This document shows positions 59,731 through 61,808 of a DNA stretch of 64,000 nucleotides, one piece after another. The translations under genes and the position numbers were made by a program. Source of the stretch: Rickettsiales bacterium (GTDB lineage: Bacteria > Pseudomonadota > Alphaproteobacteria > Rickettsiales > UBA3002); the NCBI GenBank assembly GCA_046154225.1, contig JBJXEM010000006.1, positions 46,124 to 110,123 of the forward strand, given 5' to 3'. The notes under the pieces were generated by a model. The model was not told the DNA's origin and ran no database searches. It saw nothing but the letters and a program-made list of their open reading frames with translations. The first letter of the stretch is position 1. Each line of letters begins with the position of its first letter.

Positions 59731-60777
59731 ATGTTCGGACTTGGAAAATTATTCGGCATGGCGGCCGAAGACATCGCCATCGACCTCGGCACGGCGAATA
59801 CGCTGGTGTATGTGAAGGGGCGGGGGATTATCCTGAACGAGCCGTCGGTGGTGGTGCTGCGCGAGGAAAACGGGCGCAAAGTGCCGGTGTTTTTCGGCGC
59901 CGACGCGAAGGCCATGCTGGGCCGCACGCCTGAGAAAATGACCGCCATTCGCCCGCTGAAAGACGGGGTCATCGCCGATTTTCGCGCGGCCGAGGAAATG
60001 ATCAAATATTTCATCAACAAGGTGAACACGCGCCGCAGTTTTTCCGGGCCGCTGATTATTATCTGCGTGCCGGCGGGTAGCACGCCGGTCGAGCGCCGGG
60101 CGATTCAGGAATCGGCCGAGCATGCGGGCGCGCGCGAAGTGTGGCTGATTGAGGAGCCGGTAGCAGCCGCTATTGGTGCGGGTTTGCCGGTGTCGGACCC
60201 GACCGGCAGCATGATCGTCGACATTGGCGGCGGCACCACGGAAGTGGCGGTGCTATCGCTGAACGGCATTGTCTATGCGCGTTCGGCCCGCGTCGGCGGC
60301 GACAAAATGGACGAGGCGATTATCAATTACATTCGCCGCTATCACAATTTGCTGATTGGCGAATCGACCGCTGAGCGCATCAAGAAAGAAGTGGGCGCCG
60401 CAGCCCCACCCGCCGACGGGCAGGGGCGGCTGATTGAAATCAAGGGCCGCGATTTGATGAACGGCGTGCCGAAAGAACTGGTGCTGAGCGAAGCGCAAAT
60501 CGCTGAAGCACTCGCCGAACCCGTGCACCAGATTATCGAGGCGGTGAAAGTGGCGCTCGAATCCACCCCGCCGGAATTAAGCTCGGACATTGTCGATAAA
60601 GGCATCGTCATGTCGGGCGGCGGCTCGCTGCTGCGCTACCTCGACGTGGTGGTGAGCCACGCGACCGGGCTGCCGGTTTTTGTCGCCGAAGATTCCCTCA
60701 GCTGTGTCGCCATGGGCACCGGCCGCGTGCTTGAGAACATCGACACGCTGAAACACGTGCTTTTTAAGCAAGAGTGA
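59731..60777 (+). CDS. mreB: rod-shape-determining actin homologue MreB
   Basis: [19 protein letters not shown] and [11 protein letters not shown] motifs. 348 aa. Confidence 0.93.
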
Positions 60778-60843
60778 GTGGTGGGTGGTGGGTAGTGTGT
60801 GGTGAGAGAAACCACGACTCACCACCCACTACCCACCACGCAC
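60772..60843. repeat. heptamer-array hairpin (GTGAGTG/GTGGGTG units) between mreB and mreC, overlapping the mreB stop
   Basis: GAGTGAGTGGTGGGTGGTGGGTAGTGTGTGGTGAGAG - AAA - CCACGACTCACCACCCACTACCCACCACGCAC. The mreB codons GAG TGA lie in the left arm. Confidence 0.88.
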
Positions 60844-60888
60844 TGTAATTCTTCTTGAGCTTGTCTCAAGCAGTGCCATAGTCGCGCC

Positions 60889-61716
60889 ATGAGCAGGGAT
60901 CGGTACAGTTATAGCTATGGCAGCAGCGCCGCGCCAAAATTGTGGTGGCAGCGGGTGGTGACGTGGGTGTTGGTGCTGGTGGCCGTGCTGCTGCTGGTGC
61001 TGGCGCGCCAGCCATTTACGAGCGGTATCCGCGAGCGGTTGCTGGCCACGCTTACCCCGGCTTTGTCGCTGGTGTCGCAGCCGGTGCATATGTTTCGTGG
61101 GCTGGTGGCCGACAAGGACGCGTTCTTTGCCGCGATCGACGAAAATAAAATGCTGCGCGAGGAAAATGAAACGCTGCGGCACTGGCAGGCAGTGGCACTG
61201 GCGCTGAAGGCCGAAAACGAATCACTGCGTGCTTTAAGCGGTTACCAGCCGGTCGAGAATGTGAAATACGTGACGGCACGCGTGGTGGGCCAAAGCGCGC
61301 GCGGCTATGGCGCCACGATCACCATCAACGCGGGCACAAGCGAAGGCATCGCGCCGTACCAGCCGGTGGTGGATAGCGAAGGGCTGATCGGGCGGATTAC
61401 GACCGTGAGTGCCAATGCGGCACAGGTACTGCTATTGTCGGATGCCACAAGCCGCGTGCCGGTCATCACCGGCACCACGCGCCAGCATGCGCTGCTTTCG
61501 GGCACCGGCGAGGATTTGCTGCGCCTGACATTTCTCGAGGGTGATGCGCGCGCCATGACGCTAGGCGAGCCGGTCGCCACCACCGAGGAAGGGGCGCTGA
61601 TTCCCGGCGGTATTTTAGTAGGGAAAATATTCCGTCGCGATGCGCAGGGGTTGCTCGTGAAACCGCCGCGCCCACTCGCTAGCGCCGAATATGTACGGGT
61701 GGTGGTGAGTAAATGA
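60889..61716 (+). CDS. mreC: rod-shape-determining protein MreC
   Basis: N-terminal TM helix, coiled-coil (ENKMLREENETLRHW) and beta-barrel domains. Positioned between mreB and mreD. Confidence 0.85.
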   Translation: MSRDRYSYSYGSSAAPKLWWQRVVTWVLVLVAVLLLVLARQPFTSGIRERLLATLTPALSLVSQPVHMFRGLVADKDAFFAAIDENKMLREENETLRHWQAVALALKAENESLRALSGYQPVENVKYVTARVVGQSARGYGATITINAGTSEGIAPYQPVVDSEGLIGRITTVSANAAQVLLLSDATSRVPVITGTTRQHALLSGTGEDLLRLTFLEGDARAMTLGEPVATTEEGALIPGGILVGKIFRRDAQGLLVKPPRPLASAEYVRVVVSK

Positions 61717-61720
61717 GACA

Positions 61721-61808
61721 GGATTCAGCATTCAGCATTCAGCATTCAGCACGAAGCCGCGCGAGCCTATTCTTGAGCCCTCAATCCCGAATCCCAAATC
61801 CCGAATCC
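61721..61808. repeat. paired heptamer arrays (ATTCAGC x4 and AATCCCG/AATCCCA x4) between mreC and mreD
   Basis: GGATTCAGCATTCAGCATTCAGCATTCAGC ... CAATCCCGAATCCCAAATCCCGAATCC. The arms are only about 60% complementary and share a GATTC core. The element ends 2 nt before the mreD ATG. Confidence 0.85.

Follow-up and report, generated by a model that had tools for sequence, protein, structure and literature searches.

Inverted heptamer arrays between the mre genes of an uncultured alphaproteobacterium and their likeness to the arms that bracket S23p genes

The heptamer repeats named STRR, for short tandemly repeated repetitive, have been known since about 1990, and the intervening sequences (IVS) of rRNA since about the same time; to our knowledge, neither has an accepted origin or function. 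The question arises again in the window studied here, a 64 kb stretch of DNA from an uncultured alphaproteobacterium deposited as 'Rickettsiales bacterium', in which each of the two gaps of the mreB-mreC-mreD operon holds two facing runs of 7-nt units. Are these elements part of the operon, or do they only sit in it? A first description made from the letters alone, called here the sequence-only reading, took both for hairpins placed to act on mRNA stability or translational coupling. The comparison with relatives indicates that the mre hairpins are fast-turnover passengers and not operon design. They are an alphaproteobacterial instance of a known but unexplained kind of repeat, and what is new is the link between such heptamer arms and the S23p genes, which encode a four-helix-bundle protein.

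Heptamer arrays at the gene boundaries of the mre operon

Arrays were detected by Tandem Repeats Finder (TRF) and by an autocorrelation scan of the window, and neighbouring genes were named via Pfam. The relatives compared over the mre region were, by MreC identity, L001 (90%), L175 (77%), L176 (74%), L002 (73%), and L017 and L021 (~50%). In the window, the region is composed as follows:

59731-60777, plus strand: mreB (open reading frame (ORF), synteny with relatives)
60773-60804: 5' G-rich arm of the mreB-mreC hairpin, TGAGTGG TGGGTGG TGGGTAG TGTGTGG TG (TRF array from 60774, inverted repeat, fold)
60813-60844: 3' C-rich arm of the mreB-mreC hairpin, CACGACTCACCACCCACTACCCACCACGCACT (TRF array 60812-60843, fold, inverted repeat)
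60889-61716, plus strand: mreC (PF04085 homologs)
61719-61751: left arm of the mreC-mreD pair, (ATTCAGC)x4.7 array, 96% matches, starting 3 nt past the mreC stop (TRF, alignment with L001, L017 and L021)
61783-61808: right arm of the mreC-mreD pair, (AATCCCG)x3.7 array, C-rich, (CGGGATT)n on the other strand (TRF)
61811-62311, plus strand: mreD (PF04093)

The 5' arm of the first element begins at the mreB stop codon, the TGA at 60775-60777, which lies inside it. As RNA, this hairpin folds with -52.1 kcal/mol (z -7.5), and its 32-nt arms show 84% complementarity. In the second gap the mreD ATG (61811) stands 2 nt past the right array and the arms have the convergent arrangement of the inverted pairs of Xanthomonas, but pairing is absent: the best complementarity is 72% over 32 nt (a value of ~60% had been given before), only the outer 8 bp pair, and the region as RNA folds no better than shuffled sequence (z -0.05). 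Of the statement that both gaps contain hairpins, only the half regarding mreB-mreC is retained, while the remark that the elements abut stops and starts proved right in both gaps.

In the relatives the gene order is the same and the elements are absent or replaced. When the mreC-mreD gap was compared with those of L001, L175, L176 and L002, arrays were present only in the window and in L001; mreC overlaps mreD in both L175 and L176, and 21 nt separate the two genes in L002; none of these three has an array, and L002 shows a single unit-like remnant after the mreC stop. In the mreB-mreC gap, L176 has a heptamer hairpin running from the mreB TGA stop, with GTGAATG paired to CATTCAC (z -8.4), and in L001, L175 and L002 this place is taken by an unrelated palindromic element, GC-rich and inserted either way round. 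This gap is a landing site for differing repeats. Because relatives with the same gene order lack the mre elements or carry another repeat, the elements are not conserved parts of the operon, and the conserved role that their position had suggested does not hold. The palindromic element of the relatives is ~90 nt long and is located at 1-140 in L001, 418-530 in L175 and 470-560 in L002.

Where heptamer arrays are found at the same site, their units differ. By alignment, the arrays that follow the mreC stop are in register in four lineages, with the units ATTCAGC in the window, GTTCAGA in L001 and ATTCACT in L017 and L021; the TTCA core is common, and the other three unit positions are altered in every copy of the array. 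Likewise, both arms of the mreB-mreC hairpin have changed together between the window and L176, which fits arm-to-arm copying. The proposal that arms are homogenised internally is upheld by these two cases and by mutL, described below. In the mreC-mreD pair, the left arrays have 96-100% matches and the right arm, common to the window and L001, has 85-89%; the left array is the young, renewed arm and the right one is older. Renewal of one arm alone would abolish the pairing, and this pair would have lost it because one arm was renewed on its own. On the whole, the elements are gained, lost or replaced among relatives, and persist or recur at a site while their units turn over in concert.

The same construction around S23p genes

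The gap between ilvC and leuA in the locus L005 contains an inverted pair, (GTGACTC)x4 and (GAGTCAC)x4, which brackets a 125-codon ORF encoding a 23S_rRNA_IVP / four-helix-bundle protein (PF05635, E 3.9e-36; TIGR02436), here named S23p. The same S23p gene is present in the ilvC-leuA gap of L003, L007, L013, L083, L084 and L173, and in all these lineages except L003 it is surrounded by inverted arms with a 7-nt period. Several of these cassette arms belong to the TAGGGxx family, which is found in the window at 20128 and in mutL at 4079. In five lineages the 5' arm of the cassette starts exactly at the ilvC TAG stop, with phased (TAGGnnn)n units, and this mirrors the window arm that starts at the mreB TGA.

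In the clade, the ilvC-leuA gap is an insertion hotspot that ranges from 123 nt to 2.4 kb (L008-L018). In the window it spans 55891-57942 and contains three ORFs, one of them ferritin-like (56480-56938), in place of the S23p cassette.

The association extends well beyond this gap. Metagenome contigs scanned by S23p protein alignment gave 80 loci, 71 with enough flank; a bracketing inverted repeat was counted at a score of 12 or more, and position-shifted sites served as controls. Inverted arms bracket the gene at 53 of the 71 loci and at 1 of the 108 controls. The strongest period is 7 in 51 of the 53 bracketed cassettes, and likewise in 51 of 53 the 5' arm has more G than C; in all, 65 distinct arms were counted. 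A period-7 run upstream of the S23p gene was observed at 42 of 66 loci, versus 0-1 for periods 5, 6 and 8-11. The arms have a median of 4.0 units, with sizes peaking at 3-4 units, and their units are very diverse between genomes: 47 arms gave 38 different consensus units. The window elements and the S23p terminal stems share one construction, a pair of arms each made of about four 7-nt units, of which the G-rich one is 5' on either strand.

Cassettes were also found on finished replicons of cultured organisms, which shows that the design is no assembly artefact: Calothrix has (GGGTGTA)n / (TACACCC)n, Nostoc edaphicum (TAGGGAG)8 / (CTCCCTA)5 and Riemerella (AGGTTTA)n / (AACCTTG)n. In Azospirillum lipoferum 4B (L170) the element is a genuine 23S rRNA IVS in helix 45, with the stem CAGAGGA CGGATGA ... 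/ TCCGTCC TCTGTCT .... S23p homologs borne on plasmids cluster in the heterocystous cyanobacteria, which are the organisms classically known for STRR. The cassette of the Nostoc edaphicum plasmid pNe_5 (L172), with its (TAGGGAG)8 arms, lies between two genes for ribonucleotide reductase subunits and is oriented opposite to them, so that a cassette and the operon split by it may differ in orientation. The identical S23p genes of the Nostoc PCC 7120 plasmids alpha and gamma (L167, L168) have a 3' (CTCTGCC)n array and no matching 5' arm; on plasmid gamma an ISL3 transposase gene is located directly upstream of the S23p gene, and may have displaced the arm.

The S23p/four-helix-bundle family counts at least 7981 members at E <= 1e-10 among the 8000 candidates listed, and we know of no role, catalytic activity or nucleic-acid-binding activity for it. 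The Xanthomonas gene XCC0516 encodes an S23p homolog that was crystallised as a homopentamer (2GSC). A GGGAATC array overlaps the start of this gene in the supplementary table of Rehm et al. 2015 (PMC4692102), in the text of which the S23p family goes unmentioned. In the open-access text of the literature we found no statement of a general association between S23p genes and heptamer arms, only the note on heptamers in the Coxiella IVS. Zhang et al. 2014 reported 18 such IVS-protein genes inside cas loci (PMC3936711); in light of the ilvC-leuA case, by analogy, these may be insertions between co-transcribed genes.

Heptamer elements elsewhere in the window

The autocorrelation scan revealed 10 period-7 runs in the window, compared with a mean of 0.2 and a maximum of 2 in 100 dinucleotide-preserving shuffles. 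The other periods from 4 to 12 gave 0-2 runs each in the window, with no enrichment beyond period 7, and four of the top five inverted repeats by length are heptamer elements, namely those of mreB-mreC, 22752, 20128 and mutL, which make nearly perfect hairpins. The elements are, therefore, dispersed and specific to period 7. The sequence-only reading had named five loci besides the two mre gaps, and TRF arrays were found at every one of them:

4079-4108: G-rich arm, AGGGTTT type, in the mutL linker, in frame, encoding EGLGSRVWG
4235-4264: C-rich arm, CTAAACC type, in the mutL linker, encoding NPYTLNPSPS
20128-20207: hairpin (TAGGGTA/TAGGGTT)x4.4 versus (CCCTAAA)x4.6, arms 20128-20158 and 20176-20207 (TRF, fold)
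22752-22821: hairpin (GTGAGTG)x4.3 versus (TCACTAC)x4.6, arms 22753-22782 and 22789-22820 (TRF, fold)
24886-24910: solo arm, C-rich, (TCACCAC)x3.6 with 100% matches; the motA ATG lies 6 nt past it (TRF)
36751-36773: solo array (AGAGTCG)x3.3, between the transfer-messenger RNA (tmRNA) gene and sspB (TRF)

Arms in the window have 3.3-4.7 units. By TRF consensus these are GTGRGTG, GGGTWTA, ATTCAGC, CGGGATT and AGAGTCG; GTGRGTG is common to three loci (the mreB-mreC hairpin, the 22752 hairpin and the solo arm at 24886) and GGGTWTA to two. Loops measure 8-19 nt, or consist of native mutL sequence, and are unrelated between copies. The surroundings vary as well. The 20128 hairpin (z -7.8 for 20120-20215 as RNA) occupies the whole 93-nt gap between two divergent genes, one HemN-like (minus strand) and one unknown (plus strand), and the 22752 hairpin (z -11.6 for 22745-22830 as RNA) lies between minus-strand pseudouridine synthase and rsmD-like genes, the stop of the upstream gene being within an arm. 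The elements tolerate every gene-orientation context and, moreover, a coding linker.

The mutL copy had been described as having the same architecture as the others, which is correct (z -5.4 for 4070-4270 as RNA); it is not intergenic, however, but in frame in the interdomain linker of MutL. In the third unit of the G-rich arm, TGG stands where the array pattern would give an in-frame TAG, and the frame stays open. The 107-127 nt between the arms encode FAAPNAALWRGEQLPPQHRS, with the motif FAAPxxxLWxxxxLPPQHR, in all relatives including those devoid of arms, and MutL is no longer than in relatives. Since the 'loop' motif is conserved in all relatives, what the arms enclose is native sequence, and they do not represent the termini of an insertion; the idea of an inserted unit with cargo was discarded on these two grounds. 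As for the linkers of other lineages, the arm pair of the window recurs in L166 with its units altered in a coordinated manner; in L163 the right arm has grown to some nine units, or 63 nt, and remains in frame; and L164 carries, in this same position, a perfect (AGGATTC)x4 that lacks a partner arm. The elements sit at permissive sites, namely gene boundaries and a disordered protein linker.

A second case of arrays inside a coding region was observed in L021 (9089-9119) and L017 (9033-9065), where (ACTGAAG/ACTGGAG)x4.4-4.7 lies on the opposite strand within an rsmB-like methyltransferase gene. In the window there is also a second, unrelated nested palindromic family, GTCATTCC[CA]GCGAA[AG]GC[GT]GGAATC and relatives, at 24788-24863, 43984-44052 and 21979-22130, with perfect 26-28-nt arms and a REP-like look (REP, repetitive extragenic palindrome); its copy at 24788-24863 adjoins the solo arm upstream of motA. 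Further short GC-rich palindromes, not built of heptamers, are present at 6638-6763 (TCCTCCCCCCATCGGGGGGAGG) and, between leuA and mreB, at 59535-59615 (GTCACCCCGG...ACCCCGTGATAAACACGGGGTGAC). The tmRNA gene next to the solo array (36921-37284, minus strand) is of the two-piece (permuted) alphaproteobacterial form (Rfam RF01849, 196.7 bits); downstream of it, sspB lies on that strand too. At gathering score this tmRNA is the sole Rfam match of the whole window, with no rRNA and no family at the heptamer elements.

Known repeats, a probable origin and its rivals

None of the STRR1-3 units, CCCCAGT, TTGGTCA and CAACAGT, is among the TRF consensus units of the window. Otherwise the likeness to cyanobacterial STRR, pointed out in the sequence-only reading, is apt: both are tandem 7-nt units, dispersed and mostly intergenic, which as inverted arrays form hairpins in intercistronic gaps, and STRR-type arrays also flank S23p genes on cyanobacterial plasmids. 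The differences are the host, here an uncultured alphaproteobacterium, the unit sequences and the presence of several unit families within 64 kb. Devine et al. 2009 described hairpins of 7-bp STRR repeats in several cyanobacteria, for example between hupS and hupL, and suggested for them transcript stability or translational coupling (PMC2670836), the same functions that had been proposed for the mre elements. In Xanthomonas campestris, 186 GGGAATC arrays were reported, 89% of them intergenic and ~70 in convergent inverted pairs, one of which is listed in the supplementary table between groES and groEL (Rehm et al. 2015, PMC4692102). Such arrays have ~4 units, are 89-93% intergenic, lie near ORF ends, and vary in length and sequence between close species. 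The window shares with them the convergent pairs forming stem-loops near ORF ends, but Xanthomonas has one dominant unit, GGGAATC, that forms G-quadruplexes, whereas the window has at least four unit families, mostly not of this type, and no GGGAATC. Heptamer hairpins were therefore already a described kind (PMC4692102, PMC2670836), a finding that the sequence-only reading had itself set against its claim.

The 23S rRNA IVS of Coxiella, Leptospira and Azospirillum lipoferum (L170) have a long terminal inverted repeat, heptamers in the arms and a variable unit number, and are selfish and dispensable, in all of which the window elements are comparable. In Coxiella, RNase III cuts the 28-bp terminal stem of the IVS in its middle, and strain-variable tandem GACAGAT heptamers are located upstream of its S23p ORF (Warrier et al. 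2016, PMC4990558). The mreB-mreC element, not the mreC-mreD one, resembles an IVS in its terminal inverted repeats and its stem of ~20-30 bp; unlike an IVS, the window elements have no ORF and lie between or within protein genes and not in helix 9, 25 or 45. To the REP and bacterial interspersed mosaic element (BIME) type, with which they had been compared, the mre elements do not belong: their arms consist of heptamers in tandem, with several unrelated units, and not of a conserved palindrome in near-identical copies. REPs, whose mRNA-stabilising effects are known, are conserved palindromes of 20-40 nt recognised sequence-specifically by a HUH transposase; what they and the hairpins of paired REPs (REPINs) with their REP-associated tyrosine transposase (RAYT) have in common with the elements studied here is the extragenic palindromic nature, the position at operon junctions and a single-copy gene flanked by the same repeats as a possible autonomous form. 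The arms of the window type have many sequences, and the gene associated with them encodes a four-helix bundle of 120 aa with no known catalytic motif. Finally, the TAACTGA heptamers of Beggiatoaceae, cyanobacteria and Bacteroidetes are intergenic repeats of 2-6 units (PMC4679880), which often end 1 nt before a start codon or overlap a stop codon; unlike the window arrays, they are almost all direct, consist of a single unit and are oriented to the downstream gene.

Taken together, we think that the mre elements are probably gene-less stems of the IVS type, that is, dispersed inverted heptamer arrays renewed by slippage in 7-nt steps, with arms copied from each other at the DNA level and any effect of RNase III incidental. 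The arrays would be renewed by replication slippage in the 7-nt register, seeded on local sequence, with arms starting at the neighbouring stop codon. Arm complementarity would be kept by strand-symmetric copying of DNA, through intrastrand template switching or gene conversion, and not by selection on RNA structure. In fact, the arm mismatches in 58 cassettes comprise 40 of G.U type and 55 of A.C type on the sense strand (p = 0.15), and this lack of a sense-strand G.U excess argues against long-term selection on an RNA helix; RNA-level selection on the stems was accordingly rejected. Once transcribed, the mreB-mreC stem (~30 bp) could, by analogy with the IVS stems, be a substrate of the RNase III type; it would then part the mreB segment from the mreCD one or protect their ends, an effect that would be incidental and no designed regulation.

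Several points weigh against this explanation. No S23p (PF05635) homolog was found among the genes encoded in the window, although the source contig very probably encodes an S23p-type gene outside it (P0262, 'four helix bundle protein'). S23p genes may have settled in pre-existing hairpins, instead of the hairpins deriving from cassettes. Arrays stay at the same site across deep divergence (MreC ~50%, MutL ~78%); neutral DNA in a compact genome would hardly be expected to last so long, and the arrays could be under selection or actively maintained. The power of the G.U test, with 95 informative mismatches, is moderate. The explanation accounts neither for the 7-nt preference of slippage nor for the 5' position of the G-rich arm; for the polarity one may speculate that, were the C-rich arm the first to be transcribed, the RNA would offer Rho a loading site.

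The opposite view is that the hairpins serve the mre operon as adaptive cis-regulators, which, in line with proposals for REP/BIME and STRR, stabilise the upstream mRNA, set the mreB:mreC:mreD ratio or couple translation. It would account for the exact position at cistron boundaries, with a stop codon in one arm and the mreD ATG 2 nt past another, for the L176 hairpin at the same place with both arms altered together, and for the arrays after mreC in four lineages, and this idea has also been put forward for the STRR hairpins of the hupS-hupL gap (PMC2670836). Nevertheless, we regard it as unlikely, as relatives with identical gene order lack or replace the elements, the mreC-mreD arms form no hairpin, elements of this kind also fill a divergent gap and occur inside mutL, and the class shows neither a T-tail nor an RNA-level G.U signature. 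A terminator or promoter function was rejected: in the intrinsic terminator scan of 59400-62400 no heptamer hairpin was called and no T-tail was seen, and no sigma-70-like site was found in the divergent gap of the 20128 element. A transposase-moved origin, as conventional miniature inverted-repeat transposable elements with terminal inverted repeats, would agree with the patchy presence among relatives and with unit families common to several loci, but we deem it very unlikely: the mutL arms bracket native conserved sequence and not cargo, the copies have unrelated loops, target-site duplications are not seen, the arms take their phase from the adjacent stop codon, and arm units differ between orthologous cassettes. 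Even less credit can be given to a control of replication or expression by G-rich arms acting as G-quadruplexes. The (GGGNNNN)4 type is seen in the arms at 4079 and 20128 and, on the complementary strand, in that at 61783, and for the (GGGNNNN)n of Xanthomonas and Nostoc such a role was suggested and formation in vitro shown (PMC4692102); however, the mreB-mreC arms (GTGAGTG type), ATTCAGC and AGAGTCG have no regular G3 tracts, a nearby complementary arm favours the hairpin, and GGG units occur in only 16 of 47 cassette arms, for which reason the quadruplex was dropped as a common denominator. The 'three-frame stop' idea (7 = 1 mod 3, TGAGTGG/TAGGGTA) is true of several arms and was rejected as a general property, stop triplets being present in only 22 of 47 cassette arms and in none of ATTCAGC, AATCCCG and AGAGTCG.

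A different possibility, compatible with what is seen around S23p genes, is that the S23p pentamer, a relative of the retroelement protein Avd, acts in trans and is the missing partner of the bacterial heptamer repeats. The gene between arms would be the autonomous form, and solo arrays and hairpins devoid of the gene would be non-autonomous sites, bound, created or maintained by the protein in a relationship like that of RAYT and REPIN. The association of gene and arms is strong and extends across phyla, the XCC0516 start is overlapped by one of the 186 GGGAATC arrays of its genome (PMC4692102), plasmid homologs are concentrated in STRR-bearing heterocystous cyanobacteria, the source contig very probably encodes such a protein, and unit families are common to loci within the window (three GTGRGTG, two GGGTWTA). 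By contrast, units are hugely diverse between genomes (38 in 47 arms) and within one genome (L007 versus L164), which makes a sequence-specific recognition by S23p hard to picture; arm sizes peak at 3-4 units and not at 5, so that the pentamer arithmetic of five units per arm is unsupported; neither catalysis nor nucleic-acid binding is known for the protein; and in Coxiella it is probably not made (PMC4990558). We therefore put this idea forward only tentatively, as a possibility that we would sooner doubt than accept. If it were true, STRR, the Xanthomonas GGGAATC pairs and the window hairpins would be non-autonomous sites of the gene-between-arms form, the 7-nt period would reflect the engagement of single-stranded nucleic acid by a ring protein, and a single link would join the heptamer repeats to the intervening sequences of rRNA and to a very large protein family without a known function.

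The value of the finding is less in the mre operon than in the S23p/IVS link, by which an old question becomes experimentally approachable. It also calls for caution in annotation: IVS-protein genes inside operons, for example in cas loci, may be insertions and not functional partners, and arrays can lie in frame within genes such as mutL and rsmB or mislead start-codon calls, as for MreC of L176. In the latter, the Joint Genome Institute (JGI) gene call for MreC (299 aa) begins within the heptamer hairpin (388-459), and the conserved ATG is at 460. In the window, the stretch right before the mreC ATG (60847-60888) has no obvious Shine-Dalgarno sequence; it contains CTTGAGCTTG...GTGCCATAGTCGCGCC, conserved also in L001, L002, L175 and L176, and may be the real cis signal for mreC expression.

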